In this document: positions 2,681 through 53,992 of the stretch, in pieces | Layout: each line of letters opens with the position of its first letter | How positions within the stretch are numbered: position 1 is the stretch's first letter | Assembly (NCBI GenBank): GCA_964344385.1 | Contig: CAYFNG010000002.1 | Coordinates: 193,476-257,475 of the forward strand | Direction: 5' to 3' | DNA length: 64,000 nucleotides | Source: an uncultured Sneathiellales bacterium | Lineage (GTDB): Bacteria; Pseudomonadota; Alphaproteobacteria; CAYFNG01 | The notes under the pieces: generated by a model | Database searches by the model: none | What the model saw: only the letters and a program-made list of their open reading frames with translations | Told to the model about the DNA's origin: nothing | Position numbers and translations under genes: made by a program

Positions 2681-4018
2681 TCAGTCCTCGCCAGCCGCCG
2701 GCCTACGGGACCGCAACAGCCTGCGGGCATCGGCGAACAGGTCGGCCCAACCCTCCCCGGGACGTAGGCGAACATGACTGATTATATTTAGCTTTTTCTT
2801 AACGACGACAACCATCCAGCCATTTCTCGTCAGCGTGGTGACAGTATAGGCGAAGGCGACGCCGATGGCTCCCATAGTCTGGATCAGGACGACGCCCAAT
2901 ATCAGGAACAGGGCGGTGGTGACCACCATGATCTTGGCGTGATCGTGCTGGATCGCGGTCATCGTCATCAACACCCCTGCCGGCCCGGCCAGGGCGCCGA
3001 TGGTCTGGCCGATGATCAGCACGATCAGGATGTTGTCGGCCGCGACATATTCCGGCCCGAACAGACCCAGGACCGGACGCGCGAACAGGACCAGCAACAG
3101 CGCCAGCGGCACCGTCGCCAGGAAGATCCATTGCGAGGCCCGGGTGACCTGGGCCTGCAACTCGGCCATGTGGTTGCGGTGATACAGCTCGGAAATCATC
3201 GGCGCGATGGCGATCCTAACCGCGTCCAGCGAAAAGGCGAGCAGGGCTGCCAGCCGTAAGGCGACGGCGTATTCCGCCGCTACCGACATGGTCAGCAGCC
3301 AGCCGATCAGCAGCATGTCGGCGCGGGCCGAGATCGCGTTCATGATGGTCGAAAACAGCAGCGGCCGGGCGGTTTGGGCCCACTTCCTGGGTTCGAATTT
3401 CGGCGTGATGCCGCCCAGGGCGCGGCGAATGCGGAAGCCGTCCAGGATCACCGCTACCAGGATCGCGGCGCCCAGGCAGATCAGGGCCGCGTTGGCGGTC
3501 AGCGGGGCCGCCGCCAGGGCGATCACCGCGAACAGCGTGGCCAGGGCCGGCCTCAGGATGTGAAAGCCCAGCAGGGCCGGCACCATGATCTTCAGTCCGC
3601 GCTGGTATTCCCGGTTCAGGATCATCCAGGTCCAAAGCGGCAGGACCAGCAAGCCCAGCAGTACCGCCTGGCCCAGGCCCTGCGAATAGTCGTAGAGGCC
3701 AAACCCGGCGGCGGCGACACCGGCAACCAGCCAGACCAGGTTGGCCCCCAGGCCAAGCTGGCGGGAGCGCCGCAGTACCCCGGCCAGGTGCGGCCGATCG
3801 CCGTCGGCGGTGTACATGGCGGCAAATTTCAGGGCGACCCGGTCATAGCCCAACAGGCACAGCGGCGACAGCACGGTCATCACCGTGATCGCGTACATGG
3901 TCGTGCCGTAATCGTCCTTCGACATGGCCCGGGCGAGAAAGACCGTGAAGGCGAAATACAGGACGACACCGGCTATCTTGACGATAAAGGCCTTGGCAGC
4001 GCCGCCGGCAAGGTTCAT
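2681..4018 (-). CDS. wzx: Polysaccharide biosynthesis protein / Wzx-type flippase (MOP/PST family)
   Basis: 445 aa, highly hydrophobic with ~12 predicted TM segments, PST-family-like composition. In the EPS cluster next to the Wzc-like gene. Confidence 0.7.
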   Translation of the reverse strand: MNLAGGAAKAFIVKIAGVVLYFAFTVFLARAMSKDDYGTTMYAITVMTVLSPLCLLGYDRVALKFAAMYTADGDRPHLAGVLRRSRQLGLGANLVWLVAGVAAAGFGLYDYSQGLGQAVLLGLLVLPLWTWMILNREYQRGLKIMVPALLGFHILRPALATLFAVIALAAAPLTANAALICLGAAILVAVILDGFRIRRALGGITPKFEPRKWAQTARPLLFSTIMNAISARADMLLIGWLLTMSVAAEYAVALRLAALLAFSLDAVRIAIAPMISELYHRNHMAELQAQVTRASQWIFLATVPLALLLVLFARPVLGLFGPEYVAADNILIVLIIGQTIGALAGPAGVLMTMTAIQHDHAKIMVVTTALFLILGVVLIQTMGAIGVAFAYTVTTLTRNGWMVVVVKKKLNIISHVRLRPGEGWADLFADARRLLRSRRPAAGED

Positions 4019-4055
4019 CCGCGATACTCCCCCGGGGGCAGGGCCGGGTATTCAG

Positions 4056-6323
4056 TCAGCGCACATAGGCCTGGTAGTAATAGCCGGCATCGGCGTACCC
4101 GTACAGGCCGTGTTTCTTGACGTCGACCTGGGTCAGCACGATGCCGCCGATATGGCCTTCGGTTTCGGTGATCTGGCGCAGGCCGGCCATGGCGATGTCG
4201 CGGCGGGTTCGTTCCCACTGGACCACGAAGATGATCTCGTCGACGATCGGCGCCAGCAACCGGGCGTCCGAAACCGCAAGGACCGGCGGCGAATCCAGCA
4301 CCACCAGATCATATTCCGCCGACTGGGCCTCCAGGAATTCGCGCATGCCCGGTGAATTCAACAGTTCGGCCGGGTTGAAGACCTCGCCGCCGGCTGGCAG
4401 GAAGTGCAGCCCGGTCGGCTCGTCGATCCGCATGCAGTCGGCGAATTCCTTTTCGCCGGTCAGGATCTCGACCAGTCCCGACTTGTCGGTTCCGGGGATC
4501 GCCTTGAACAGGGACGGGCGGCGCAGGTCGCAGTCGATCAGCAGCGTCTTGTGGCCGACCCGGGCGGCGTAGCGCGCCAGGGACAGTGACGTGGTGGTCT
4601 TGCCCTCGTTATGGATGGACGAGGTGAACATGACGGTTTTCACCGGCCGGTTGCTGCGGGCCATCAAATGGGCGGTACACAACGTCCGGATGGCTTCGGC
4701 AAAGGCGGATTTCGGGTTCTTGACCAGGAAATCCTCACGCCGACGGCTGGGCAGGCGCGGCAATTTCGGTACCAGCGACAGCGCATACATGCCGGTTGCC
4801 CGCTCGATCTGCTCGGTGGTCCGGAAACAGCGGCTCGGCCGTTCGATATACAGGACCAGCAGGACCACGCCCAGCAGCGAAGCGACGAACGCCGCCGCGA
4901 CCACTTGTGGAATGTTCGGCGATGTCGGCTTTTCCGGCGTGAAGCTGTGGGAGACGACCCGGGCGTCCGGCTGCTGCAAGTCCTCCTGCGCGGTGGTTTC
5001 CTTGTAACGCGCCAGGAACGTCTGGAACAGGGTCCGGGTGGCGTCGGCTTCGCGCTGCAATTCGCGTAGGCGCACCTCGGATTGGCTGATATCGGCGGCC
5101 TTGGTCTCCAGCTTCCGGACACTGCTTTGCAACGCTCTTTCCCGGGCCTTGGCGACCTTGACCTCGTTTTCCATGCCGCTGACGATCTTTTTCAGCTCCT
5201 CCTGGATCTTGGCTCTCAAATCCGCCAGATCGGCGCGGACGTTGATCATCTTGGGGTGCTTGTCGCCGTAATTGGTGGCTAGTTGCGACATTTTGCGGAC
5301 GGTTTCGACCTCCTGCTCGCGCAGGCGCTGGATCAGGGTCGAAGACAGCACTTCGGGGGCGGACTCCAGCCCGCCAGGCTTGCCCAGCAAAGATTTGGCT
5401 TGGGCGTAGCGGGCTTCGGTTTCCGCCCGTTTGGTGCGCGCCAGCACCAATTGGGTGTTCAGTTCGCTTAGCTGCTGAGAGGTGACGTAGCTGCCTTTGC
5501 CTTCGATCAGGCCGGATTTCTTGCGGTAGCTCGCGACCTTCTGGTCGCCTTCAGCCACTTGCTGGCGCAATTCGTCGACCCGTTCGCGCAGCCAGGCATT
5601 GGCGCGCTGGGTCTCCTCGAACTTGATGTCCAACTGCGATGACACATAGAGATCGGCGACGGTGTTGGCGATGCGGGCGGCCATTTCCGGGATGTGCGAG
5701 TTGTAGCGAATGGCCAAAACCAGCGACTGGCCCCGCGGCTGGACGTCCAACCGGTCGAGAAAGGCATCGATCACGTGGCTGCGTTCGGATTCTCCCTGGC
5801 CATTGGTGATGACGGTCGGTTCGACCTTGCCGCCGATAAGACCCGCCAGTCCTTCGGGCAGAACGGACCGCAGCCAATTGGTGGCGCGATCCTTCAGGTC
5901 GAAATCATAGACCTTGCCGGCCTGGCGCGCCGCCGGGTTGAGCTCCGGCTCGTTTATCAGGTTCAGGCGGTCGACGACCTTTGACGCGAAGGTTCGCGAC
6001 TGCAGAACTTCGACCTCGCTCTCGACGGTCGCGGCGTTCACGGGAATCCCTGAAACCACCTTTTCGATATCCAGGACCTGGGTCCGGCCGGTCTCGATCA
6101 GGACCAGCGATTCGGCGGTGTAGGTCGGTGGCACCTCACGGACGACGATGAACGCCAACAGGGTCAGCAGCGTGGTCAGGGTGAAGACCATCAGCTTGCG
6201 CCGACGCAGCGACATGATGAGTTCGCGCAAGTCGATCTCTTCGCTCCTGCCCTGCAAGGCGACGACCTCTGTCTGCGGTTCGGGGTACACCTTCATCGTC
6301 TCGGTCACCATCGTTGCGTCCAT
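4056..6323 (-). CDS. exoP: Polysaccharide biosynthesis tyrosine autokinase / chain-length determinant (ExoP/Wzc/GumC family)
   Basis: 755 aa. Two TM segments flank a long coiled-coil periplasmic region. C-terminal BY-kinase domain with Walker A (SSIHNEGKTTTSLSLA) and a C-terminal Tyr cluster (YGYADAGYYYQAY). Confidence 0.85.
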   Translation of the reverse strand: MDATMVTETMKVYPEPQTEVVALQGRSEEIDLRELIMSLRRRKLMVFTLTTLLTLLAFIVVREVPPTYTAESLVLIETGRTQVLDIEKVVSGIPVNAATVESEVEVLQSRTFASKVVDRLNLINEPELNPAARQAGKVYDFDLKDRATNWLRSVLPEGLAGLIGGKVEPTVITNGQGESERSHVIDAFLDRLDVQPRGQSLVLAIRYNSHIPEMAARIANTVADLYVSSQLDIKFEETQRANAWLRERVDELRQQVAEGDQKVASYRKKSGLIEGKGSYVTSQQLSELNTQLVLARTKRAETEARYAQAKSLLGKPGGLESAPEVLSSTLIQRLREQEVETVRKMSQLATNYGDKHPKMINVRADLADLRAKIQEELKKIVSGMENEVKVAKARERALQSSVRKLETKAADISQSEVRLRELQREADATRTLFQTFLARYKETTAQEDLQQPDARVVSHSFTPEKPTSPNIPQVVAAAFVASLLGVVLLVLYIERPSRCFRTTEQIERATGMYALSLVPKLPRLPSRRREDFLVKNPKSAFAEAIRTLCTAHLMARSNRPVKTVMFTSSIHNEGKTTTSLSLARYAARVGHKTLLIDCDLRRPSLFKAIPGTDKSGLVEILTGEKEFADCMRIDEPTGLHFLPAGGEVFNPAELLNSPGMREFLEAQSAEYDLVVLDSPPVLAVSDARLLAPIVDEIIFVVQWERTRRDIAMAGLRQITETEGHIGGIVLTQVDVKKHGLYGYADAGYYYQAYVR

Positions 6324-6840
6324 TACCGTGATGCCAAACCAGTCCCTGTCGGGTGGCGGCGCGCCACCTTAACGGTTGCCGCCGCGCCACGCGACTCCCG
6401 TCGCGTCAACCCGTCTTAAGAAAAGGCCGGAATGTTTAATTTTGTGCTAAGTAAAACGGAAAAATATCAAGGGTTTAAAGGGATTTTCAGCGATGGGAGA
6501 CAGGGCCCCGCCAGTGCCCCGCCATCGCTCCGGTCAGGCTGCTTGAAACGCATCGCATATGACGGTGGCCGCCTTGCCTTCTTTAGGCGAGGGGACCGAT
6601 CTCGATTTCCGGCCCTGGCTTTATAAGGTTCCTGTCAGTTTCGCGTGTCAAAACCGGACTCCGTCTTCACACCGATTTTCCATAGCCGCGAATCCCGAGT
6701 CGGGAGGCTTTACAGCTTACCGAATGTAAGGTCGAAAATAAGGGTTAACATATTGAAAAATAATAAGTAATCAACCGTGGCACAGGTCTTGCTTTTTCCT
6801 CCGGCACTAGGGAACGGTCACCATTGGATCGGGGGAATTA

Positions 6841-7530
6841 ATGACACCGTATCGCCTGCTAAAAGTCAGCTTTCTGGGCCACGAAGTACCGGTACTACTG
6901 GTACGCAACAACCTGCCGGCCGGCGCCAGAGTAATCAAGCGGACAATCGATATCCTGGGCGCCGCCTCGCTGCTGACTTTGCTGTCGCCGTTGTTTGCGG
7001 TGATCGCGATCTTGATCAAGGCCGGTGGCGGTAACGTGTTTTTCGGTCATACCCGTATCGGCCGTCAGGGCGAGCCCTTCCCCTGCTTCAAGTTCCGCAC
7101 CATGGTGCCGAACGCCGAGGAAATCCTGAAAGGCTATTTGGCGGAAAATCCGGAAGCCAAAGCCGAATGGGAACGGGACTTCAAACTGAAGAATGATCCC
7201 CGGGTGACCGCAATCGGCGCTTTCCTGCGCAAGACCAGCCTGGATGAACTGCCGCAGCTGTGGAACGTGCTGCGCGGCGAGATGAGCCTGGTCGGTTCGC
7301 GGCCGATCACCGAAGCAGAGCTGAGCCGCTACGGCGATCATGTCGGTGTCTATCTTGGCGCCCGCCCCGGCCTGACCGGCCTGTGGCAGGTCAGCGGCCG
7401 CAGCGACGTCGACTATGACGAGCGGGTCAGCATGGACACTTGGTACGCCCGGAACTGGTCGCTGTGGCAGGACGTGACGATCCTGTTCAAGACCGCGAAA
7501 GTCGTGGTCAACGGCCGCGGCGCCTACTGA
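6841..7530 (+). CDS. exoY: Undecaprenyl-phosphate sugar phosphotransferase (bacterial sugar transferase, ExoY/WbaP C-domain type), priming enzyme
   Basis: 229 aa. Conserved motifs [46 protein letters not shown] upstream of the ATG. Divergent from exoP across a 500-bp AT-richer promoter region. Confidence 0.85.
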
Positions 7531-21048: not shown

Positions 21049-21690
21049 CTATTCGAACCCCAATGCGTTGGCCCGGATTACGGCCTGGGTGCGGTTCCTG
21101 ACGTCCAGCGCTTTCAGGATCGCCGTGACATGGACCTTGACAGTGCCTTCGGCCAGATCCAGTTCCGCGGCGATTTGCCGATTGGACTTGCCTTCGATCA
21201 GGCGGGCCATGACCTGGTTCTGGCGCCGGGTCAACCCGTTGAGCTTTGCCGGCTTGGCCTCGCCCTTGGGGCGCCAGCCCGGTTTTGCCGCTCCGTTGGT
21301 CAACAGGCTCTCCGGAATATAGACACCACCGCTCAAGACTAGGTCCAACGCCCGCAGCATCAACTTGGCACCGGCGGTTTTTGGGATGTAGCCGGCCGCC
21401 CCTCCCTCGATCGCGGCACGGATGTCGCCGCTGTTTTCGGAGGCCGAAACGACGACAATGGCCGTGTCATGGTTGATCGCCTGAAGCGCTTGAAGGCAAT
21501 TGACGAGGTCCCCTCCGGGCATGGCCGGCTCCAGCAGCACGAGGTCGAGCGGTTGCTGCCCGGTCGCGACTTCGACGGTTTCGCCGAAGTCATTGGCGTG
21601 GAAGACCTCGACCTTGGGCGCCATTTCGCGCAAGAGGGTTGCCAACCCGTCACGAAACAAGGCGTGCCCATCTGCGATTAAAATACGCAT
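21049..21690 (-). CDS. LuxR/FixJ-family response regulator (REC + HTH), atypical receiver, orphan
   Basis: 213 aa. C-terminal LuxR HTH (LTRRQNQVMARLIEGKSNRQIAAELDLAEGTVKVHVTAILKAL). Receiver domain with conserved T/S and K, but the predicted phospho-acceptor position is Glu (DLVLLEPAMPGG) and the N-terminal acidic pair is degenerate (IADGH). No histidine kinase gene in the window. Confidence 0.8.
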   Translation of the reverse strand: MRILIADGHALFRDGLATLLREMAPKVEVFHANDFGETVEVATGQQPLDLVLLEPAMPGGDLVNCLQALQAINHDTAIVVVSASENSGDIRAAIEGGAAGYIPKTAGAKLMLRALDLVLSGGVYIPESLLTNGAAKPGWRPKGEAKPAKLNGLTRRQNQVMARLIEGKSNRQIAAELDLAEGTVKVHVTAILKALDVRNRTQAVIRANALGFE

Positions 21691-22041: not shown

Positions 22042-22431
22042 ATGCTGTCCCGGGTGTTGGCCGACACGACGGTGGTGTTGCATTTCGCGTTCATACTGTT
22101 CGTGATCGGCGGCGGCATTCTGGTTCGCCGTTGGCCGCGGCTTGCCTGGGTGCACCTGCCGGCGGCGGCCTGGGGCGTCGGGATCGAATTCCTCGGCTGG
22201 ATCTGCCCGCTCACCTATCTGGAGAACCACTGGCGGGCCGCCGGGGCCGCCCAGGGCTATGACACCAGTTTCGTCGAACGCTACCTGATGCCGCTGATCT
22301 ATCCCGAACTGCTGGTCGACGGCCGCCTGCCGCGCAGCGCCTTCATTGCCATCGGCTTCGGCGTCCTGGCGATCAACCTGGTCATCTACGCCGATATCTG
22401 GCGCCGCCGAAAGCGCCGCCTGACCGGTTGA
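22042..22431 (+). CDS. DUF2784-family small membrane protein
   Basis: 129 aa, 3-4 TM segments, CPLTYLE motif. A paralog with the same architecture is at 43124-43555. Confidence 0.55.
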   Translation: MLSRVLADTTVVLHFAFILFVIGGGILVRRWPRLAWVHLPAAAWGVGIEFLGWICPLTYLENHWRAAGAAQGYDTSFVERYLMPLIYPELLVDGRLPRSAFIAIGFGVLAINLVIYADIWRRRKRRLTG

Positions 22432-34576: not shown

Positions 34577-35425
34577 TCAGCCGACCCGCGGCCGGATTTC
34601 CAGCCGGCGGCTGTTCGGCGGGATATGGACGGCCTGGTAGTAGAGCGGTGTGTCGCGATAGCCGGAACCGTAGACGTGGCAGACCATGCCGACCGAAGCC
34701 GGCGCCAGGCCAAGGGCGGTACAGATCCCGTCCGCCAAGGTCTCCGCCCCGATTTCCTCGACAATACGCACGGTTGGTGCATCGAAGCGTTCGCTGAGCA
34801 CCAGGCGGAAATTGACATTGTCCAACTCGCGCGGCTGCCAATTGGCGATCTCGCCGAACCGCGACCCGGACAGGAAGATGCGGGCCAGAACCGGGAATTC
34901 GCGGTTGACGTCGATCTGCCGGTCGATGCGGACAAAGAATGGCTCCTCGCCCAGGAAATCGGCCCAAGGGCCCGGGTCGGTGACGCGCCGTATCGCCGCG
35001 ACCCGCGTATAAACCGGCAGCAGGGCGTGGGTGTCATTGTCGACAAAACGAAAATGCAAAAGGCCGTGCAGTTGCGACGGCGGCCTGGCAACGAACGTAC
35101 CGGCGCCGTGACGCCGAACCACCCGACCTTCCTTGGCGAGATGGGCCAGGGCCTTCTGCACGGTACCCAGGCTGGCCGGCAGTTTGGCCGCCATCTCCGA
35201 TTCGCCCGGTAGTCTGTCACCGGTTTGCAACTGACCGGATTCGATGGCGCGCAGAATGCCTTCCGACAGGCGGAGATATTTCGGGGGGCGCGCGCCCAGC
35301 CGGCGTTCGCCGTCGCGCAGAAAGTCGGCTAGCTGTGCAAGCTGCACGCAGAAACCTCCCCAAATTCCCGGATCTTTTGGCCGGTTGATACCGCTCACCG
35401 CAGCGCTGGTGGCGGGTTCATCCAC
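34577..35425 (-). CDS. GntR-family transcriptional regulator with C-terminal UTRA effector domain
   Basis: N-terminal wHTH (LRLSEGILRAIESGQLQTGDRLPGESEMAAKLPASLGTVQKALAHLAKEGRVVRRHGAGTFV). The exact start is uncertain. Confidence 0.7.
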   Translation of the reverse strand: MDEPATSAAVSGINRPKDPGIWGGFCVQLAQLADFLRDGERRLGARPPKYLRLSEGILRAIESGQLQTGDRLPGESEMAAKLPASLGTVQKALAHLAKEGRVVRRHGAGTFVARPPSQLHGLLHFRFVDNDTHALLPVYTRVAAIRRVTDPGPWADFLGEEPFFVRIDRQIDVNREFPVLARIFLSGSRFGEIANWQPRELDNVNFRLVLSERFDAPTVRIVEEIGAETLADGICTALGLAPASVGMVCHVYGSGYRDTPLYYQAVHIPPNSRRLEIRPRVG

Positions 35426-35591
35426 GCGAGCTTAAGTGCGGTCCCGATCGAGATCAACTGCTATATAGCTCTTTGTCCCTTTCCTCGGTCGCCATGCCGC
35501 TTGGCTGCGCTTAGGATGCGGTCGGAAAGGGGTGGCGGGTACGCATGGCGGTTCGGGAACGATTGGCCATGCGACGACGTTGTAGTGGACA

Positions 35592-36350
35592 TTGAGCATG
35601 TTCGGATTGGAAATCCAGATTCTGGCCATCGTGTGCCTGGCGGTCGCAACCGGCGGCATCGTCAAGGGCGTGACGGGGATAGGCCTGCCGATCGTGTCGA
35701 TCGCCATCCTGCTCAACTTCCTCGATCCGATGACCACCCTGGCCACGATCATCGGTCCGCTGCTGGTGACCAACCTTTGGCAGGCCGTGTCGTCGGGCGA
35801 CCTCAGGCCCGCCTTGCGCCGCTTCTGGCCGATGACGTTGTGTTTCTTCATTTTTCTGCTGATCGGTGCCCAATTGGTGGTCGGGTTGGACGAAAAGGTG
35901 ATGTTCGCGGTGTTGGGGGCGGTGGTCGCCAGCTTTGCCCTGATGAACCTGTTGCGGCCGCGCCCCCATGCTCTGGGCCTCAGGGCCGAGAAATGGCTCA
36001 GCCCCCTGGCCGGGGCGGCCGGTGGGCTGTTGGGCGGGCTGACCACCATCTGGGGCCCACCGATGATGATGCTGTTCGTGCTGTTGAAGCTGGACAAGGA
36101 CGAATGGGTGCGCACGGTCGGCCTGATCTGGTTCATCGGCTCGGTGCCGCTGGCCTTCGCCTATTGGCAGAACGGTATCCTGAGCGGCGAGCGGATCCCG
36201 CTCACCCTGGTCGCCTGTGTGCCCGGCATGCTGGGCATCCTGGCCGGCGAATGGGTGCGTCGCCGCATCGACCAGGAAAGCTTCCGCAAGGTGCTGCTGA
36301 TCGCCCTGGCCCTGATCGGCCTCAACCTGATCCGCCGGGCGGTGTTCTAG
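35592..36350 (+). CDS. Sulfite exporter TauE/SafE family membrane protein
   Basis: 252 aa, 7-8 TM segments, duplicated GxGxGxxxVP-like motifs (TGGIVKGVTGIGLPIVS; AAGGLLGGLTTIWGPP). Confidence 0.8.
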   Translation: MSMFGLEIQILAIVCLAVATGGIVKGVTGIGLPIVSIAILLNFLDPMTTLATIIGPLLVTNLWQAVSSGDLRPALRRFWPMTLCFFIFLLIGAQLVVGLDEKVMFAVLGAVVASFALMNLLRPRPHALGLRAEKWLSPLAGAAGGLLGGLTTIWGPPMMMLFVLLKLDKDEWVRTVGLIWFIGSVPLAFAYWQNGILSGERIPLTLVACVPGMLGILAGEWVRRRIDQESFRKVLLIALALIGLNLIRRAVF

Positions 36351-36468
36351 ATTCTTTTTCCGGGACGTTGTTCACTCCTAACGAATTTGTGAGCCAACCG
36401 TGCCTGGTTTGCGACAATTTCAGGCGATATATGGCCTGCAACCGAATACACCGCCTGGAGATTGACCG

Positions 36469-36951
36469 ATGTCCACGACCCTGACCTTTGGCCGCCGCCA
36501 CCTGCTCATCCTACCGTTATTGCTGGTGGCGCTGTTTTTGGCCGCCGGCGCCGTTCAGGCCGGCGAAGTCAACGCGTCGCGCTGGACCGGCGTCGCCATC
36601 GACGGCACCGACCCGGTGGCCTATTTCACCGAGAGCCGCGCGGTCGAAGGCGCCAAGCAGTTCTCCACCGAATGGAACGGCGCCACCTGGCGGTTCGCCA
36701 GCGCCGCCAACTTGGCCGCCTTCACCGCCGATCCGGAAAAGTTCGCGCCGCAATACGGCGGCTACTGCGCCTGGGCGGTGTCCCAGGGCTATACCGCCGA
36801 CATCGATCCGCAGGCCTGGAAGATCGTCGACGGCAAGCTTTACCTGAATTATTCCAAGGACGTGCAGCGCAACTGGGAAGGCGACGTGGCGGGCCACATC
36901 AAGATGGCCGACGCCAACTGGCCCGGCATTCGCGGCAAGCTCGCGAAATAA
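36469..36951 (+). CDS. YHS-domain secreted protein
   Basis: 160 aa with signal peptide (LLILPLLLVALFLAAGAVQA). Motifs GTDPVAYF and GKLYLNYSKDVQRNW are typical of the YHS-domain periplasmic family. Confidence 0.6.
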   Translation: MSTTLTFGRRHLLILPLLLVALFLAAGAVQAGEVNASRWTGVAIDGTDPVAYFTESRAVEGAKQFSTEWNGATWRFASAANLAAFTADPEKFAPQYGGYCAWAVSQGYTADIDPQAWKIVDGKLYLNYSKDVQRNWEGDVAGHIKMADANWPGIRGKLAK

Positions 36952-36983
36952 CCGGGCGCTCCATTCTTCTTTGACAGGGCGCG

Positions 36984-37025
36984 GCGGACGCGGGTAAGAG
37001 TGACCCGCGTCCGCCTTTGTTTTTC
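36984..37025 (+). terminator. Rho-independent terminator after the YHS-domain gene
   Basis: GGCGGACGCGGGT-aagagtg-ACCCGCGTCCGCC, a 13-bp perfect stem, followed by TTTGTTTTTCC. Confidence 0.7.
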
Positions 37026-37039
37026 CGGAACTTATCCTG

Positions 37040-38269
37040 ATGACCGCGCCCTTGACCGCCACCGATCTGATTGACAGCGGCCACGCCTGGGTCCGTTTGG
37101 GCGTGGCGCTGGCGCTCAGCACCATCGGCGGCATCGGCCTGTGGTCGGTGATCGTCGCCCTGCCCACCATTCAGGCCGAATTCGGCACCGATCGGGGCGA
37201 TGCCTCGCTGGCCTATACCGCGACGATGCTGGGGTTCGCTTTTGGCGGCGTGCTGATGGGGCGGCTGTCGGACCGGTTCGGGATCATGGTGCCGGTGATC
37301 ATCGGCGCCCTGATGCTGGGGGCCGGCTACCTGCTGGCCGCCCGGGCCACCGAATTCTGGCACTTCATGGCGGCCCAGGCGGTGGCCATCGGGCTGCTGG
37401 GCTGCTCGGCCACGTTTGGGCCCCTGGTTGCCGAAGTCTCCCTGTGGTTCAAGAAGCGTCGCGGCATCGCCGTCGCCGTGGTTGCCAGCGGCAACTACCT
37501 GTCCGGCACCTTGTGGCCGCCGATCCTGCAATACGGCATCGAGACCATCGGCTGGCGTGACACCCACACCCTGGTCGGCGTGCTGTGCGTCGTGACCATG
37601 CTGCCGCTGGCCGCGGCCCTGCGGCGCCGGGCACCGATTGAGGACACCGAGCCGGTGCGCCCGGTCGGGGCTTCCAATGGCGCCGCGACGCGCCCGGCCC
37701 TGCCGCTGCTGCAGGTGCTGCTGGTGATCGCCGGCATCGGGTGCTGCATCGCCATGTCGATGCCCCAGGTCCATATCGTTGCCTATTGCGGCGATCTCGG
37801 CTACGGCCCGGCGCGGGGCGCGGAAATGCTGTCGATCATGCTGGGCCTGGGTGTGGTCAGCCGCCTGGCCTCGGGCATGATCGCCGATCGGATCGGCGGC
37901 CTGGCGACGCTGATCCTGGGGTCGACCCTGCAATGCCTGGCGCTGTTCCTCTACCTGCCGTTCGACGGCTTGGTGTCTCTCTATGTGGTCTCCGCGATTT
38001 TTGGCCTGGCCCAGGGCGGTATCGTGCCCAGCTATGCGCTGATTGTCCGCGACTTCTTCCCGGCTCGCCAGGCCGGCGGGCGGATCAGCCTGGTGATGAT
38101 GGCCACGGTTGTCGGCATGGCGGCGGGTGGCTGGATGTCCGGCAAGATCTTCGACCTGACCGGCTCCTACCAAGTCGCCTTTATCAACGGCATCGCCTGG
38201 AACCTGTTGAACATGTCGATCGCATTCTGGCTGCTGATCGGCCGCCGCCGTTTCATGGCTGTTGCCTGA
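37040..38269 (+). CDS. MFS transporter
   Basis: 409 aa, 12 TM segments, MFS signature-like loop GRLSDRFG between TM2 and TM3. Confidence 0.8.
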   Translation: MTAPLTATDLIDSGHAWVRLGVALALSTIGGIGLWSVIVALPTIQAEFGTDRGDASLAYTATMLGFAFGGVLMGRLSDRFGIMVPVIIGALMLGAGYLLAARATEFWHFMAAQAVAIGLLGCSATFGPLVAEVSLWFKKRRGIAVAVVASGNYLSGTLWPPILQYGIETIGWRDTHTLVGVLCVVTMLPLAAALRRRAPIEDTEPVRPVGASNGAATRPALPLLQVLLVIAGIGCCIAMSMPQVHIVAYCGDLGYGPARGAEMLSIMLGLGVVSRLASGMIADRIGGLATLILGSTLQCLALFLYLPFDGLVSLYVVSAIFGLAQGGIVPSYALIVRDFFPARQAGGRISLVMMATVVGMAAGGWMSGKIFDLTGSYQVAFINGIAWNLLNMSIAFWLLIGRRRFMAVA

Positions 38270-38426: not shown

Positions 38427-40649
38427 CTAATTCTTGGCTGGCTTGGCCGCGCCGCCGCCGTAGATCGACGGCCGGCTGGCCACGCCCTGCGGTCCGTCCG
38501 GGTCCGCCGGTCGTGGCACATAGTGGTCGGGTGCCGGCCCGCCTTGCGCCTGCCGGGCCGCCGCCTGGGCGGGTGTTTCCAGGTCGGCCGCCGCGGCCAG
38601 GGCCGCCTTGCGGTCGACGGCTTGCGGCCGCAGGTCGTTGGGTACCGGCATGGCGTCGGCGTGGTAATAGGCCATCTTCTGCTTGGCCGGGTCGATCCTG
38701 TGGTCCAGGTTCAGTTCGCGGCGGTTGACGCCCTTGACCGGTTCGACGCAGACGCCATCGACGACCTCCAGGTCGAACCACCATTTCTTGGCGGCGTTGA
38801 TCCGCCCTTTTCCCAGCTTGTCGTCCAACCGGACCGCCAGCGGCACCAGCAGCGGCTTCAGCCAGCGGGCATTGATGCCGCACCATGACGCCAGCCGCTC
38901 CAGGATCGGCCCGTCGGCGGTGACCACCTTGTTCAGAGGGCAGGTCTTCATGCACCGCCCGCAGGCCGAGCCGCGGGCATTGGTCAGGCGATAGCGGGCG
39001 CAGCGCTCGACGTCGGGCTTCCACATCTCATAGCCGTTGAACATCACCTTATCCCCCCACGGGATGGCGTCGCAGGGGCACTCCCGGGCGCATTTCCAAC
39101 AATGCTCGCAGAAATATTGGAGGCCGAAATCGATCGGCCGGTCAGGTTCCAGCGGCAGGTCGGTGGTCACCACAACGGTCTTCAGGCGCGGCCCGACAAA
39201 CGGGTTCAGGACCAGTTCGCCGATCCGCGACAGCTCGCCCAACCCGGCCCACAGGACCAGCGGGATATGCAGCAGGTCGCTGTCGACATTGGTTTGCGAA
39301 CGGGCCGGAAAGCCCTCGCGGCGCAGGGTCTCGGCCATCACCCCGGCGATTTCGGCGCCGCGCAGATAGGCCCGCATCGACTGGCTGCCCGATATCCAGT
39401 CGTCGCCCGAGGCCCCCTCCATGGTCTCGAACTCCTGGTCGATCAGCATCACCACCGCGTATTTGTGGTAGGGCGTGATCGGCTGTCCGTCGGCGCCGTG
39501 GCTGAACCAGGCATAGCGGGGGATCTCGCAGATCCCGGTCAAATTGGCGCCCAGCAGGTAGGACAGCGATTTCAGCGCCCTCGCGTTGGCGGCGGGGTCG
39601 GCGAAGCGCTTGCGGTCGCACTCCGCCGCCGCCTCGCCGCCCTGCAGCGGCACCATCGCCCGCATCGATGCCATCATGCCCGAGGTATGGGGCTGCTTGA
39701 AGGCGAAGCGGTTCCGCTCTTTCAGCGCCTTGTCGCCGAGATCGCCGCGCAGGGCGCGCTCGAAGAACGCCGCACGCTTCGATACCCGTGGCACCTCGTC
39801 ATCCAGGATCAGCGTGGTCGGTCGCTCCACCCGCTTCACCGTCTCCATCGGATAGTCGCCCAAATGGGTGGCCCGGGCCGCCCGCCGGTTGCGCTCGCCG
39901 CCCGAGGTAGCGCCGTTCTGGCCCAGCCAATAGCCAAAGCCCCGCGATTTCAGGGCCGCCTTGGCCAGCGGCCGGTCGACGGCCAGGTCATAGTCGGTCG
40001 ACACGGCGGCGATCGAGAAACCCCGGTCCAGATATGGGTTCCTTAAGGCATCGCCATCACGCACCGCCAATCCGGCCAGCACCGCCAGACGGTCGAGGTC
40101 CAGTGCGCCGGCGCCCATGACATGGGGATGGGCGGCAAAGCCGAGCTGCAGGATGTGGCCGCTGAGGCAAACCGCGATGCCGCCGATCCGTGCGTCCGCC
40201 GCTTCCGCCAGGGCAGGCGCGATCCAGTCGCGGGCCGGGTTGCCGGCCTCAGGCACCCGGCCATGTTCCAGCAGCAGGACCACGGCATAAGGGTGGTCGG
40301 GGATCTCGGCGCCCTTGGCCCAGGCGTTCTCCGGGATGCGGCAGATCCCGACCTGGGAGGCGTTCATGAAATAGGCATAGCCCTTGGCGTCGATCATCCG
40401 CCGTTCCGCATCGTCCGGCACCGGCGCCCGGGCCGGGGCGGGTTCGTGCAGGGCGGTGCGGACAAAGATATCGAGATAGTCCCTCAATGCAGCCGCGAGG
40501 TGGCCCTGCGCGGGTCCGTCATAGCCGGGTGCCGCGACGTGGGGCCGGGCCGCCTCGGCCGCGATGACGGCGTCGTCACGCGGCAGGGTTTCCAGGGGAA
40601 ACGGGCCGAAATGGTAGGGGCGGTGGTTAGCCTTGGTGCGAAACAGCAT
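38427..40649 (-). CDS. rdhA: Reductive dehalogenase homologue, cytoplasmic 'catabolic' RdhA type (cobalamin plus two [4Fe-4S]), NpRdhA/BhbA-like
   Basis: 740 aa, no Tat/Sec signal. C-terminal twin ferredoxin-like motifs FCEHCWKCARECPCDAIP (CxxCxxCxxxCP) and C...CGRCMKTCP. Size and architecture match long oxygen-tolerant catabolic RdhAs. QueG is excluded by size. Confidence 0.55.
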   Translation of the reverse strand: MLFRTKANHRPYHFGPFPLETLPRDDAVIAAEAARPHVAAPGYDGPAQGHLAAALRDYLDIFVRTALHEPAPARAPVPDDAERRMIDAKGYAYFMNASQVGICRIPENAWAKGAEIPDHPYAVVLLLEHGRVPEAGNPARDWIAPALAEAADARIGGIAVCLSGHILQLGFAAHPHVMGAGALDLDRLAVLAGLAVRDGDALRNPYLDRGFSIAAVSTDYDLAVDRPLAKAALKSRGFGYWLGQNGATSGGERNRRAARATHLGDYPMETVKRVERPTTLILDDEVPRVSKRAAFFERALRGDLGDKALKERNRFAFKQPHTSGMMASMRAMVPLQGGEAAAECDRKRFADPAANARALKSLSYLLGANLTGICEIPRYAWFSHGADGQPITPYHKYAVVMLIDQEFETMEGASGDDWISGSQSMRAYLRGAEIAGVMAETLRREGFPARSQTNVDSDLLHIPLVLWAGLGELSRIGELVLNPFVGPRLKTVVVTTDLPLEPDRPIDFGLQYFCEHCWKCARECPCDAIPWGDKVMFNGYEMWKPDVERCARYRLTNARGSACGRCMKTCPLNKVVTADGPILERLASWCGINARWLKPLLVPLAVRLDDKLGKGRINAAKKWWFDLEVVDGVCVEPVKGVNRRELNLDHRIDPAKQKMAYYHADAMPVPNDLRPQAVDRKAALAAAADLETPAQAAARQAQGGPAPDHYVPRPADPDGPQGVASRPSIYGGGAAKPAKN

Positions 40650-40813
40650 GATCCGTTTTGCCGGAAGAATAGGTTCAGACGCGTCTGTCCAGTCTCAGGC
40701 TGGAACGGATCGAGTGTTTCATCGGATTTTTCGGATGGCAAGTCCGGGCCGCTTCCGGCGGTGCGGACGCTACCTCCCTATAGCGGCCGCACCCGGCTTG
40801 CAGATGGTGGGGA

Positions 40814-41008
40814 TCAGGAGTCGGGAAACTGCGTGCCTTGGTAACCTTTCGCCGCACGGGTCATGGCGAATTCGTCGTATTGACGTGCCACTTCTTCAAT
40901 ATTACGGGCGATGTCATCAAGATCCGAGTTGATGTGATGGCAATCTGTCTTAATTGCTCTTATGAACTCGGCCGCAAGTTTTAAGTCGTTCATCCATGAA
41001 AACGGCAT
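40814..41008 (-). CDS. Small hypothetical protein (64 aa), low-GC, atypical codon usage
   Basis: Start MPFSWMNDLKLAAEF... with RBS GGAGG 7 nt upstream. ~48% GC against ~65% background, A/T-ending codons. Predicted all-helical, acidic. Confidence 0.45.
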   Translation of the reverse strand: MPFSWMNDLKLAAEFIRAIKTDCHHINSDLDDIARNIEEVARQYDEFAMTRAAKGYQGTQFPDS

Positions 41009-41109
41009 AGCGGGACCTCCGGTTTTCAAGACTATTGGCGCTTTGCGCTTTTCTATCCTGTCTCCCCAGCCCCTAACTTTACCTACTAGCCAATATGGTC
41101 TAGTGATGA

Positions 41110-41188
41110 TTAACAGGCGGTTAACAACCTTGCATGAACGTAAGAAACTATTTTCACGATCTCGTGAACAGGGTTAACCGGCGGTTAA
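41110..41188. promoter_or_regulatory. Operator cluster: two copies of TTAAC-N5-GTTAA 64 bp apart, flanking a perfect 16-bp palindrome TTCACGATCTCGTGAA
   Basis: Read directly: TTAACaggcgGTTAA at 41110-41124, TTCACGATCTCGTGAA at 41153-41168, TTAACcggcgGTTAA at 41174-41188. Lies 100-180 bp upstream of the small low-GC gene and rdhA (minus strand) and downstream of the CoA-transferase genes. Confidence 0.55.
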
Positions 41189-41329
41189 AGCTCTGTTCTG
41201 CCAGTGCTTGTTCCACACCCCTTCCTCCAGCGACCAGCCTTGGGCGGTCCTTTTTTGAGCGGTTCCCAGAGGGACCGGCGCGGAACAGGGACCAACAAAG
41301 GCATGTTGCACGCCTTATGCGCCGCGAAG

Positions 41330-42091
41330 TCAGCTGCGCCAAAAACCTTCCTTGTCAATCTGGTGCAGGGCCGCCAGTTCCTCGACGCCGGGCACCGGGG
41401 TTTCGCCGAAATCCGGCAACGTCTTCAGGTCCCAGCCGGTGTTTTCGAGGACTTCCTCCAGCGTGTGCCCGGGATGCACAGCGGCCAGGTGCAGCTCATT
41501 GTCCGGCCCGTATGGCCTCAGGACCGCCCGGTCGGTGATCACCGCGGCCGGGCCGCCGCCTTCCAGACCGGCTTCCTTGCGCGCGTTGCCGCCGCTCAGG
41601 AAACCCGGCGAAGTTACAAAATCGACCTTTTCCACCAGGCGATGCTTCTGGTGGTTCATGATGATGATCAGCCGTTCGGCCATGGCGGCGATGTCGGGGG
41701 CGCCGCCGGAACCCGGCAGCTTGACGGTCGGTTCGGCGATATCGCCGATATAGGAGGTGTTGATGTTGCCGTAACGGTCGATCTCCGCCCCGCCGATGAA
41801 GCCGGCGTGGATACGGCCGCCCGACAGCAGTCCCATGATCTGGATCAGGCCGGTGGTCCAGGCGGCGCCCAGTTGGTTGGGGCCGTCGCACATGGTGTAC
41901 AGCATGCCGTCGGCCGGCTGGTAGCGGGCGACGCCGCTTTCGAACAGGCCGACCGCGTTGGGAGCATGGGTCAGGCGGGCAACGCCGAAGGCGGTGATCG
42001 GCAGCCGCATACCAACGAAGATGCGCTCGCCGTCCTTGATCTCGCGGGCGGCGGCAATGATCATCAGTTCCTGGGTCGAATAGTCGGACAT
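41330..42091 (-). CDS. CoA-transferase subunit B (3-oxoacid / glutaconate CoA-transferase family)
   Basis: 253 aa. Family I CoA-transferase beta-subunit motifs (GMRLPITAF...; SGGAPD; ESGVAR with the catalytic Glu region). Confidence 0.85.
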   Translation of the reverse strand: MSDYSTQELMIIAAAREIKDGERIFVGMRLPITAFGVARLTHAPNAVGLFESGVARYQPADGMLYTMCDGPNQLGAAWTTGLIQIMGLLSGGRIHAGFIGGAEIDRYGNINTSYIGDIAEPTVKLPGSGGAPDIAAMAERLIIIMNHQKHRLVEKVDFVTSPGFLSGGNARKEAGLEGGGPAAVITDRAVLRPYGPDNELHLAAVHPGHTLEEVLENTGWDLKTLPDFGETPVPGVEELAALHQIDKEGFWRS

Positions 42092-43123: not shown

Positions 43124-43555
43124 TCAGCCATTGGCGGTATTGCAGCCGATCGGGAAATAGAGCAACAGGGCGGCCGCCACGACCGTGGCAAAGAATCCGA
43201 TCGTCGACAGGCGGTCGACCCGTTCGGCGTTCGAATTCAATCCGGTGATCCGGTCGGTCAGGTACTTCATGTAGCCGCCGCCAGGCGGCGGCTTGCCGCG
43301 CCGCTCGCGCAGGCGCCATTGCAGGTCGGTGATCACGCAGTAGCCACCGGGTTTGCCCAGCAGCAGGCCTAGCCCGTACCACGACGCCAGCACGGTTGCG
43401 GCGAGGGCCAGGTGCCAGATCCTTGTGGCGCAGAACAGCCAGCCGACTGCGATGAACAGGATCAAGGCCAGGTGCACAATGTGCAGCAACAGGTTGGCGG
43501 CTTCCTCGGCAATCCGCTGGGTCAGGGGTGGGGTGGGTCGTAACGGTTCGGGCAT
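43124..43555 (-). CDS. DUF2784-family small membrane protein (paralog of 22042-22431)
   Basis: 143 aa. Shares a conserved H..H.A.ILF...G......W.HL..A.W...G..C.ITDL/TYLE pattern with the other copy. Confidence 0.5.
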   Translation of the reverse strand: MPEPLRPTPPLTQRIAEEAANLLLHIVHLALILFIAVGWLFCATRIWHLALAATVLASWYGLGLLLGKPGGYCVITDLQWRLRERRGKPPPGGGYMKYLTDRITGLNSNAERVDRLSTIGFFATVVAAALLLYFPIGCNTANG

Positions 43556-51477: not shown

Positions 51478-53790
51478 TCAGCCGCATTTCGAGTGGCCGC
51501 ACGCGGTGCAGGTGTCGCATCCTTCCTGACGGATCAGGGCCGGCTGGCTGCATTTCGGGCACCGGCGGAACGGCGCGCCCTGGGTTTCGTCCTCGCCGAC
51601 CGCCTTGGGCAGCACGGCGCTTTCGGCTTCCTGGTCGCGGCCGCCGGCGATGAAACCGATGTTGATCAGGTGCTGTTCGATGACCTCACCGATCGCCGCC
51701 AGCAATGACGGCACGTAACGCCCGGCCATCCAATGGCCGCCGCGCGGGTCGAACACCGCCTTCAACTCCTCGACCACGAACGAGACATCGCCGCCACGGC
51801 GGAACACCGCACTGATCATCCGGGTCAGCGCCACCGTCCAGGCGTAATGCTCCATGTTCTTGGAGTTGATGAAGACCTCGAAGGGGCGGCGGCGGCCGTC
51901 CTGAACGATGTCGTTGATGGTGATGTAGATGGCATGATCGCTTTCCGGCCAGGCGATCTTGTAGGTCTGGCCGGGCAGGGCTTCGGGCCGGTCCAGCGGC
52001 TGGGTCATGTAGACGATCGCCCCGGCCTCGGCGGTGGCGGCGGTCTTGCCGACCGGCCGTTCGAAGGGCAATTCCGGTTCCTTGTCCTTGGCCTTTGACC
52101 GGGTCTCCAGCACCGCGCCGGTGATATCGTTCGGCCGGTAGGTGGTGCAGCCCTTGCAGTCCAGGTCGAAGGCCTGCAGGTAGATGTCCTTGAAATCGTC
52201 GAAATCGATCTCTTCGGGCACGTTGATCGTCTTGGAGATCGAACTGTCGACATATTGCTGAACCGCGGCCTGGACCGCCAGGTGGTCCCGCGGCTGCAAT
52301 CCTTGCGAATCGACGAAATAGTCCGGGATCGGGGCGGTTTCGCCCTTCAGCCGCCGGTACAGCCGGTAGGCGTAGTCGGTGACCTCCTCGTGGCGGCGGC
52401 TGCCGTCGGGCATCAGCACGTTGCGGCCGTAGGAAAAGCTGAACACCGGTTCCAGGCCGCTGGAGACATTGTCGGCGAACAGGGAAATGGTCCCGGTCGG
52501 CGCCACCGAGGTCAGCAGGGCGTTGCGGATGCCCTGGGCCTCGATCGCCTGGCGCACCTCCTCATCCAGGTCTTGGACGGTCTCGCCGGCCAGATAGGCA
52601 TCGGCGTCGAACAGCGGGAAGCTGCCCTTCTCGGCCGCCAGTTCGGCGCTGGCCAGATAGGCAGCCCGCTGGATCGCGCGCATCCAGCGGCGGGTCAAGT
52701 CCAGCGACCGGGCGTCGCCATAACGCGCCCGGCACATGATCAGCGCATCGCCCAGCCCGGTAATGCCAAGGCCGATCCGCCGCTTGGCGCGCGCCTCATG
52801 GGCCTGTTCCTCGAGCGGGAAATTAGAGATCTCGATGACATTGTCGAGGAAACGCACCGCCGTCGCTACCAGCTTGGCCAGGGCCGCCTCGTCCAGCGCC
52901 GCCTCTTCCTCGAACGGGTTATTGATCAGCCGGGTCAGATTGATCGACCCCAACAGGCAGGCGCCATAGGGCGGCAACGGCTGCTCGCCACAAGGATTGG
53001 TTGCATTAATCTTCTCACAATAATATAAATTGTTGCGGCGGTTGATGCGGTCGATGAAGATCACGCCGGGCTCGGCATAGGCATAGGTCGCCCGCATGAT
53101 CCGGTCCCACAGGTCCCGGGCCGGCAACGATTTGTGGGTGACGCCGTTGAACCGCAGCTCCCAGGGGGCGTCCTCCTTGACCGCCTGCATGAAGTCGTCG
53201 GTGATCAGGACCGACAGGTTGAACATGCGCAAGCGCCCCGGCTCCTGCTTGGCGTCGATGAACGCTTCGATGTCCGGATGGTCGCAGCGCATGGTCGCCA
53301 TCATCGCGCCGCGCCGGTGGCCGGCGCTCATGATGGTGCGGCACATGGCGTCCCACACATCCATGAAGGTCAGCGGTCCGGACGCATCGGCGCCGACCCC
53401 CTTGACCGGGGCGCCCTTGGGCCTGAGCGTCGAAAAATCATAGCCGATGCCGCCACCGGCCTGCATGGTCAGCGCGGCCTCTTTCAGGTGCTGGAAGATG
53501 CCCGACATGTCGTCGGGGATTTCGCCCATCACGAAACAGTTGAACAGGGTGACCCGGCGGGATGCACCGGCCCCGGCCAGGATGCGGCCGGCAGGCAGGA
53601 AGCGGAAATCCTCCAATGCCTCGTAGAACCGGGTCTCCCACAGCTCAGGCTCGTCTTCGACCGAAGCGGCGGCCCGGGCCACCCGGCGCCAGCTATCCTC
53701 GACGGTGGCGTCCAGGGGCCGGTCCTCGGCGTCTTTCAGCCGGTACTTCATGTCCCAAATCTGTTGCGAAATCGGCGCAATCGTCGGCAT
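51478..53790 (-). CDS. nrdJ: Adenosylcobalamin-dependent ribonucleoside-diphosphate reductase (class II RNR)
   Basis: 770 aa. Catalytic-site Cys regions (TNPCGEQPL), a B12-binding region and a C-terminal Zn-ribbon CPKCSQ...CDTCTACGHSKCG. Confidence 0.9.
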   Translation of the reverse strand: MPTIAPISQQIWDMKYRLKDAEDRPLDATVEDSWRRVARAAASVEDEPELWETRFYEALEDFRFLPAGRILAGAGASRRVTLFNCFVMGEIPDDMSGIFQHLKEAALTMQAGGGIGYDFSTLRPKGAPVKGVGADASGPLTFMDVWDAMCRTIMSAGHRRGAMMATMRCDHPDIEAFIDAKQEPGRLRMFNLSVLITDDFMQAVKEDAPWELRFNGVTHKSLPARDLWDRIMRATYAYAEPGVIFIDRINRRNNLYYCEKINATNPCGEQPLPPYGACLLGSINLTRLINNPFEEEAALDEAALAKLVATAVRFLDNVIEISNFPLEEQAHEARAKRRIGLGITGLGDALIMCRARYGDARSLDLTRRWMRAIQRAAYLASAELAAEKGSFPLFDADAYLAGETVQDLDEEVRQAIEAQGIRNALLTSVAPTGTISLFADNVSSGLEPVFSFSYGRNVLMPDGSRRHEEVTDYAYRLYRRLKGETAPIPDYFVDSQGLQPRDHLAVQAAVQQYVDSSISKTINVPEEIDFDDFKDIYLQAFDLDCKGCTTYRPNDITGAVLETRSKAKDKEPELPFERPVGKTAATAEAGAIVYMTQPLDRPEALPGQTYKIAWPESDHAIYITINDIVQDGRRRPFEVFINSKNMEHYAWTVALTRMISAVFRRGGDVSFVVEELKAVFDPRGGHWMAGRYVPSLLAAIGEVIEQHLINIGFIAGGRDQEAESAVLPKAVGEDETQGAPFRRCPKCSQPALIRQEGCDTCTACGHSKCG

Positions 53791-53899: not shown

Positions 53900-53992
53900 G
53901 TTTCCACAAATCGCGCCCGATTCGCATCAACAGAACTGCCAATTTTTCGACTTATCCACAGGACGCAGGTAATTCCGCCAGATCTATCCACA
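53900..53992. promoter_or_regulatory. Cluster of DnaA-box-like motifs upstream of nrdJ
   Basis: Exact consensus TTATCCACA at 53952-53960. CTATCCACA (8/9) at 53984-53992. TTTCCACA (weaker) at 53901-53908. All in the same orientation, 110-200 bp upstream of the nrdJ start. Confidence 0.45.

Follow-up and report, generated by a model that had tools for sequence, protein, structure and literature searches.

Paired elements in the intergenic region

The 64-kb window analysed here (64,000 nucleotides of contig CAYFNG010000002.1, from an uncultured Sneathiellales bacterium) contains at 41009-41329 an intergenic region that lies between the ATG (41008, minus strand) of a 64-aa open reading frame (ORF), s64, and the stop codon (41330) of the gene for CoA-transferase subunit B (41330-42091, minus strand; Pfam PF01144). 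The flanking genes are all on the minus strand and follow each other, from right to left, as recQ, DUF2784, CoA-transferase A, CoA-transferase B, the intergenic region, s64 (40814-41008) and rdhA, a gene of the reductive dehalogenase family. The region is AT-rich, with 46-52% GC versus about 65%. It carries two elements of the form TTAAC-N5-GTTAA, TTAACAGGCGGTTAA at 41110-41124 and TTAACCGGCGGTTAA at 41174-41188, separated by 64 bp from start to start, exactly where the initial annotation had placed them. We suggest that both are boxes of the response regulator CtrA in the promoter of s64.

The pair is far beyond chance. TTAAC-N5-GTTAA occurs in the window at these two positions alone, even with one mismatch allowed, while 0.14 occurrences are expected, and none of 100 shuffles gave two or more. 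For the 321-bp intergenic region taken alone, 200,000 composition-preserving shuffles give P = 1e-5 for at least two TTAA-N7-TTAA. The two copies agree at 14 of 15 positions including the spacer (AGGCG and CGGCG, with four of five bases in common). Taken as 16-bp arms, they are 88% complementary with 47 bp between them.

A dispersed repeat, either a repetitive extragenic palindromic (REP) sequence or a miniature inverted-repeat transposable element, is expected in many intergenic copies. Further copies of TTAAC-N5-GTTAA are present neither in the window nor in about 0.9 Mb of related loci (85 loci), nor in the JGI metagenome contigs, where the scan for the combined pattern (repeat plus box) returned 0 matches. 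The REP-like origin that had been named as the way to disprove an operator array is thus not what is found. Rfam covariance models gave zero matches at E ≤ 1 across 40500-41600, hence no known structured RNA is seen there.

Identity of the two elements

CtrA is an OmpR-type response regulator with global control of the cell cycle, motility and differentiation in Alphaproteobacteria, and its phosphorylation proceeds via CckA-ChpT. TTAAC-N5-GTTAA(C) and TTAA-N7-TTAA(C) describe one and the same string, so that the two elements are the CtrA box written differently. The consensus TTAA-N7-TTAAC is established by chromatin immunoprecipitation sequencing (ChIP-seq) and genetics in several Alphaproteobacteria (PMC7200025, PMC4046655, PMC2877005), and the motif is even printed as 5'-TTAAC-N5-GTTAAC-3' in PMC7232146.

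In the whole 64 kb the perfect TTAA-N7-TTAAC is found only at 41110-41125 (plus strand) and 41173-41188 (minus strand), one per strand. The proximal box 1 (41110-41125, plus strand) reads TTAACAGGCGGTTAAC, or TTAACCGCCTGTTAAT on the minus strand, and is located 102-117 nt upstream of the ATG at 41008, with its distal edge at 117 nt. The distal box 2 (41173-41188, minus strand) reads TTAACCGCCGGTTAAC, is perfect on the strand of the gene, lies 165-180 nt upstream of the same ATG and doubles as a perfect 7-N1-7 palindrome. Both fall inside the promoter range of CtrA boxes, about -400 to +100 of the start codon.

Both strands of the window were scanned with the Caulobacter-derived CtrA weight matrix of PMC2877005 (Brilli 2010; Table S3a), whose preference for G at position 11 and for C at position 16 amounts to a GTTAAC 3' half. 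Box 1 scores 19.2 bits and box 2 scores 17.4 bits, ranking first and second among 127,970 window positions; the next-best score is 13.3 bits, and the background has a mean of -20.7 and a standard deviation of 8.0. The ratios of weight to maximum, 0.96 and 0.94, exceed the threshold of 0.85 used for CtrA regulon prediction (PMC4046655). The closest named homologs of the flanking genes belong to metagenome-assembled genomes (MAGs) of Alphaproteobacteria, Rhodospirillaceae and Hyphomicrobiales, which supports an alphaproteobacterial host.

Hence, the pair very probably serves, in the promoter region of s64, to bind a dimeric regulator encoded elsewhere. That the elements are CtrA boxes of the s64 promoter is, in our estimate, true with a probability of about 0.7. 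As far as sequence can tell, the consensus, the matrix score, the promoter position and the conservation upstream of homologs (see below) all agree with this assignment. The initial annotation had expected an operator for a dimeric regulator and had left the cognate factor open. The kind of element and the distant location of the regulator gene hold up, while the factors proposed and the association with rdhA do not, and the consensus, the wording of PMC7232146 and the two top matrix scores all name CtrA.

The sites resemble the CtrA-regulated promoters of Caulobacter crescentus, Hyphomonas neptunium, Dinoroseobacter shibae, Sinorhizobium and Brucella in the identical 16-bp motif with its GTTAAC 3' half, in the distance of less than 400 bp upstream of a start codon and in the alphaproteobacterial genome. 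Unlike those promoters, they are unusually symmetric, and the candidate target is a small-protein family for which a CtrA link is not reported in the literature searched. Two perfect CtrA sites, as here, are also described in the D. shibae luxR2 promoter (PMC4046655), where the target gene is a different one; the 64-bp spacing and the inverted repeat between the boxes have no described counterpart at that promoter, for which the spacing itself was not seen. Elsewhere in the window, three moderate CtrA-matrix matches (about 13 bits) cluster at 6435-6775, with a GTTAAC at 6744. This is the divergent intergenic region of the exopolysaccharide cluster, between a Wzz/tyrosine-kinase gene (4056-6323, minus strand) and a sugar transferase gene (6841-7530, plus strand).

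The 64-aa gene and its family

The s64 gene is preceded by a Shine-Dalgarno sequence GGAGG (41016-41020, minus strand), read from the sequence 7 nt before the ATG. A word-indexed protein search with its product gave no homologs. The exhaustive phmmer (HMMER) search revealed four remote ones, P0242 (E = 1.5e-7), P0243, P0244 and P0246, which share the N-terminal motif W-x-x-DLKLAA-x-F-[VI]-[KR]-[SA]-I-x-T in the alignment; therefore, s64 is a real gene. It belongs to an uncharacterised small family of single-helix proteins: AlphaFold (AF2) predicts one helix over residues 2-54 with a confidence (pLDDT) of 84. Tblastn against plasmids found no match to the protein.

The GC content at third codon positions is 0.54 in s64 versus 0.69-0.92 in the ORFs called in the window. 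Low GC is common to the whole family, and the homologs are likewise below their own contigs, which weakens the reading of s64 as a recent acquisition.

Another conserved small ORF (71-86 aa, MASQYR..VLM.AVELLR..) lies 34-70 nt downstream of the small gene in each of the three closest homolog loci: at 5226-5441 in L096, at 430-690 in L092 and from about 1609 in L091, where it is not called as a gene. The L096 and L092 versions match each other by blastp with E = 2e-4. There is no trace of this ORF in the window, and the 164-nt spacer and rdhA occupy its place. The s64 of the window thus appears, from this gene order, to be the first member of a two-gene module standing without its partner.

Conservation of the box upstream of homologs

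Direct footprinting of the orthologous intergenic region is impossible, since the neighbours differ in all of the 80 rdhA-ortholog loci and in all loci with orthologs of CoA-transferase B at 85-89% identity. Blastn of 40650-41330 found nothing, and no population variation is usable, as the locus shows no difference among its five metagenomic copies. The s64 homologs offer the comparison instead. The three most similar ones lie in unrelated gene contexts with no rdhA.

Upstream of the L091 homolog, a perfect box, GTTAAGGCTTTCTTAAC, stands at 119 nt from the ATG, together with a classic CtrA half-site, TTAACCAT, at -84. The loci L096-L099 have a perfect box, TTAATCAATTCTTAAC, at -105, and L093 has a one-mismatch box at -93. 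The boxes of L091 and L096 are the top CtrA-matrix hits of the whole locus, and box 1 of the window, at 117 nt, is in the same position class. Across about 0.89 Mb of unrelated loci, hits of at least 13 bits occur at 0.0047 per 300-bp bin; with this background bin rate of 0.47%, a box at two of three independent homologs has P of about 7e-5. The inner bases of the homolog boxes differ (TTAAG...CTTAA in L091 and TTAAT...CTTAA in L096), and TTAA-N7-TTAAC is what all have in common. The motif had been defined initially as a palindrome; its inner C/G pair is not conserved in the homologous promoters, and this definition has to give way to the CtrA consensus.

The same kind of motif stands out in relatives. 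Four Rhodospirillaceae MAGs that encode a 75-77%-identical RdhA have an orthologous intergenic region in which the longest invariant block is GTTAACA-N3-CGTTAA, against about 60% identity elsewhere in the region. This block is located upstream of a gene for a ShlB/TpsB two-partner-secretion transporter (L008 1114-1156, L009 1145-1187, L013 268-283 and L029 328-343). In L008 and L009 two boxes stand in tandem, 27 bp from each other, and one of them is a canonical TTAA-N7-TTAACC(A/C)T box (TTAA-N7-TTAACCAT). Judged from this invariance, the CtrA-type motif is under selection in the ShlB/TpsB promoters of these relatives.

Pilin genes are classical CtrA targets. In a further locus, L100, the best CtrA-matrix hit, TTAATATTTTGTTGAC (4304-4319, 16 bits), precedes a Flp-pilin gene (4016-4210, minus strand) by about 95 nt.

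Points that weigh against CtrA

Several observations do not favour the assignment to CtrA. The genes ctrA, cckA and chpT are absent from the 64-kb window, and parts of the phosphorelay are missing in some Rhodospirillales (PMC2877005). The P0246-like subgroup of homologs (L105, L106, L108, L109 and L110) is without a CtrA box. In the proximal box the best-scoring orientation faces away from the gene, and the consensus scan for a promoter of the sigma-70 type found none. The taxonomy of the homolog-bearing contigs is not established independently of the boxes. Finally, the sites of the window are more symmetric than CtrA requires and have four of five spacer bases in common, which could reflect a local duplication or a factor that reads a true palindrome.

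We note that the five P0246-like loci all have instead a -35-like motif, TTGACAC(A/C), about 190 nt upstream of the DLKLAA codons, along with a long leader or N-terminal extension.

The dehalogenase-family gene and other possible regulators

The best placed of the alternatives, which we hold to be improbable, is in line with the view of the initial annotation: the pair would be operators of another symmetric dimer that reads the TTAAC-N5-GTTAA palindrome and controls rdhA, be it a CprK-like protein of the CRP/FNR family, a GntR or some other distant regulator. The downstream gene (38427-40649, minus strand) encodes a 740-aa protein of the reductive dehalogenase family (TIGR02486, E = 1.5e-44, just under the family cutoff), for which there is no match to the Pfam dehalogenase domain. 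With rdhA downstream, such a dimer would account for the full dyad symmetry of both sites, for the perfect 7-N1-7 arrangement of box 2 and for the nearly identical spacers. It would not account for the homologous promoters, where the inner C/G that makes the palindrome is not conserved.

CprK, of the CRP/FNR family, controls reductive dehalogenase genes in Desulfitobacterium via the dehalobox TTAAT-N4-ATTAA, a 14-bp dyad, and CRP/FNR boxes have even spacers, N4 or N6. What the window shares with that system is the presence of AT-rich TTAA dyads upstream of a locus with an rdhA-family gene. Unlike the dehalobox, the sites here have the odd spacer N5 and belong to the small gene rather than to rdhA, and there is no gene of the CRP/FNR type (cNMP-binding or HTH_Crp) among the approximately 50 window ORFs scanned. 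The half-site alone may indeed be the same, since FNR/Dnr-type sites such as TTAAC-N4-GTCAA are described (PMC7232146).

The orthologs of rdhA point in the same direction. They number in the hundreds at 60-81% identity and occur in unrelated gene contexts in alpha-, gamma- and betaproteobacterial MAGs, a distribution that suggests an enzyme family with strong conservation and possible mobility. None of 80 rdhA-ortholog loci (at most 81% identity) has either motif or s64 upstream of rdhA, and homologs of s64 bear the box with no rdhA nearby. The link between the array and rdhA that the initial annotation implied is thus not upheld, and identity as a dehalobox is rejected on the spacer, on the missing CRP/FNR gene in the scanned ORFs and on the orthologs lacking the motif. 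An influence of the array on rdhA is possible only via read-through.

It was noted initially that no regulator gene is adjacent, and this is true for the immediate neighbours. The sole regulators in the window are a GntR gene (34577-35425), 5.4 kb from the array, and a response regulator of the LuxR/FixJ type (21049-21690), 20 kb from it. The proximity of the GntR gene speaks for a regulator of this family, as does a GntR homolog by rdhA in L025, the closest rdhA-ortholog locus; the intergenic region between the divergent GntR and TauE genes, on the other hand, is without a TTAAC-type site. As GntR genes are near rdhA both in the window and in L025, GntR is a better candidate than the array for the rdhA-associated regulator. 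At 34577-38269 the GntR gene and a TauE-YHS-MFS operon diverge, with the operon and rdhA in convergent orientation, and the L025 homolog, which adjoins rdhA, is 35% identical.

Duplication, autoregulation and replication origin

Less likely still, and in our view very doubtful, is a non-functional pair, left by a local duplication or representing the terminal inverted repeats of a very small mobile element in decay, and brought in with a horizontally acquired low-GC cassette. The agreement of the copies at 14 of 15 positions including the spacer would be explained in this way, as would the low-GC island at a synteny break and the lack of the partner ORF seen in homologs. Against this reading, the window, the related loci and the JGI metagenomes contain no further copies. 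Inheritance of a repeat cannot explain why the same type of box stands at the same distance upstream of diverged homologs in unrelated DNA, and the low GC is seen throughout the gene family rather than in this copy alone.

It is highly unlikely that the 64-aa protein itself binds the palindromes and autoregulates, an option that the initial annotation had offered. Adjacency and the lack of a regulator gene nearby are all that speaks for it. The protein is a predicted lone long helix with no helix-turn-helix (HTH) or ribbon-helix-helix fold, it belongs to no Pfam, NCBIfam or PHROG family, and its sole PDB matches are designed coiled coils.

We give almost no weight to a replication origin or partition site that, like the Caulobacter origin, combines CtrA boxes with a DnaA box and a parS-like repeat, since the AT-rich region, the two CtrA boxes, the DnaA-box-like TGTTCCACA at 41209 and the arms TTCACG/CGTGAA of the middle repeat, which we take to resemble parS half-sites, are set against co-oriented flanking genes with no inflection of GC skew near 41 kb, a single imperfect DnaA-like box in place of a cluster, a parS consensus TGTTNCACGTGAAACA that is not matched within 3 mismatches anywhere in the window, 6 extra central bp in the middle repeat relative to parS, and no dnaA, parAB, hemE or repABC genes nearby.

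The inverted repeat between the boxes

The third element of the intergenic region (41153-41168), TTCACGATCTCGTGAA, is located 4 bp from box 2. It was described initially as a perfect 16-bp palindrome; its 7-bp arms, TTCACGA and TCGTGAA, enclose a central TC, which is not its own reverse complement, and the element is a 7-N2-7 repeat. The window has no second copy of it. A count of all perfect inverted repeats with arms of 7 bp or more and a spacer of 0-8 bp gives 103 in the window, or about 0.5 per 320 bp, and the shuffled intergenic region has at least one of them in 13% of trials. With this base rate the repeat may be a product of chance. Of the three palindromes said to be beyond chance, therefore, the statement stands for the TTAAC pair (P = 1e-5) and not for this element.

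No counterpart of the repeat is found upstream of the s64 homologs, the TTCACGA half-site has no copy in the GntR-TauE intergenic region, and the literature search on the repeat gave no match. Whether it is a real operator of a second factor or chance is roughly an even call. As a terminator on the minus strand it was flagged weakly by the scan, and we reject this reading: the tail AAAATAGTTTC is not U-rich by the stem, and the predicted fold omits the repeat.

Response regulators of the NarL/FixJ type, with a GerE HTH, bind heptamer pairs in a 7-2-7 arrangement, and the NarL heptamer is TACYYMT. The middle repeat has the same geometry, so that, if functional, it would suit a dimer of the GerE or a similar type, and the window does encode a response regulator of the LuxR/FixJ type (21049-21690). 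Unlike in NarL sites, however, TTCACGA mismatches TACYYMT, nothing ties that regulator to the repeat, and the repeat is not significant alone. If a promoter used box 2 as its -35 element, a functional repeat would cover the spacer and the -10 region of that promoter.

Proposed mechanism

We suggest the following scheme for the s64 promoter. Dimers of phosphorylated CtrA would occupy box 1, which would overlap the -35 region of a leftward promoter. The putative -10-like hexamer CATATT (41092-41097, minus strand), read from the sequence, is 12-17 nt downstream of box 1. Hexamers at the same offset after the box are GATATT in L093 and AAGAAT in L096. The assignment of the -10 element is weak, given the negative sigma-70 consensus scan. 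With CATATT at 41097-41092, transcription would start near 41085 (41083-41087) and leave a 5' untranslated region of about 76 nt. Expression of the small gene would in this way be tied to CtrA activity.

Box 2, at 64 bp or about six helical turns from box 1, would present itself on the same face of the DNA and may serve as a second high-affinity site for cooperative occupancy. Alternatively, it may drive a weaker or secondary upstream promoter. The 7-N2-7 repeat, if functional, would allow a second factor to modulate the output.

The dehalogenase-family gene would be affected only if transcription passes the hairpin in the 164-nt spacer between the stop of s64 and the start of rdhA. This strong GC-rich hairpin (40738-40801, minus strand) has an RNA-fold z of -3.1 and no U-tract, and the terminator scan shows no canonical terminator in the spacer. 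It may act in termination, in RNA processing or in attenuation.

On the other side, a hairpin AAGGCGUG-CAA-CAUGCCUU followed by UGUUGG (41298-41316, minus strand) is predicted by RNA folding 14 nt after the CoA-transferase stop, where the terminator scan is silent. Tentatively, we take it as a probable weak terminator that would end the CoA-transferase operon and set it apart from the CtrA-box promoter.

What the locus suggests

The array is not a new regulatory system of dehalogenases. A false lead is removed, and the elements are an instance of a well-known alphaproteobacterial motif. The motif is known already, and what is new here is the target: an undescribed small-protein family as a candidate member of the CtrA regulon. 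Its members are predicted coiled-coil proteins of about 60 residues with no Pfam or NCBIfam family, and the box is kept at a fixed distance from them across unrelated loci. Based on this fixed distance and on the two-gene pairing in relatives, we suggest that the family is a candidate small effector of the cell cycle or motility.

A more far-reaching version is that the s64 protein is a conserved direct CtrA target (in cell cycle, polarity or motility) whose promoter was captured by the rdhA-family gene in replacing the partner ORF, so that the dehalogenase is tied to the CtrA programme with gating at the 7-N2-7 repeat. We regard this as speculative and rather unlikely. If read-through into rdhA does take place, a catabolic enzyme of the dehalogenase family would be linked to the CtrA programme, which would be unusual.

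Genomic surroundings

Orthologs of CoA-transferase B at 85-89% identity have quite different downstream neighbours, and the junction between CoA-transferase B and s64 is hence a synteny break. The rest of the window is ordinary chromosome, with an exopolysaccharide cluster, ABC transporters, metXW, hisC, a class II ribonucleotide reductase and ftsEX. Two DUF2784 paralogs are present, at 22042-22431 (plus strand) and 43124-43555 (minus strand). Last but not least, two DnaA boxes, the perfect TTATCCACA at 53952 and the near-perfect CTATCCACA at 53984 (together 53952-53992), closely precede the class II ribonucleotide reductase gene (51478-53790, minus strand), which fits DnaA control of nrd genes.

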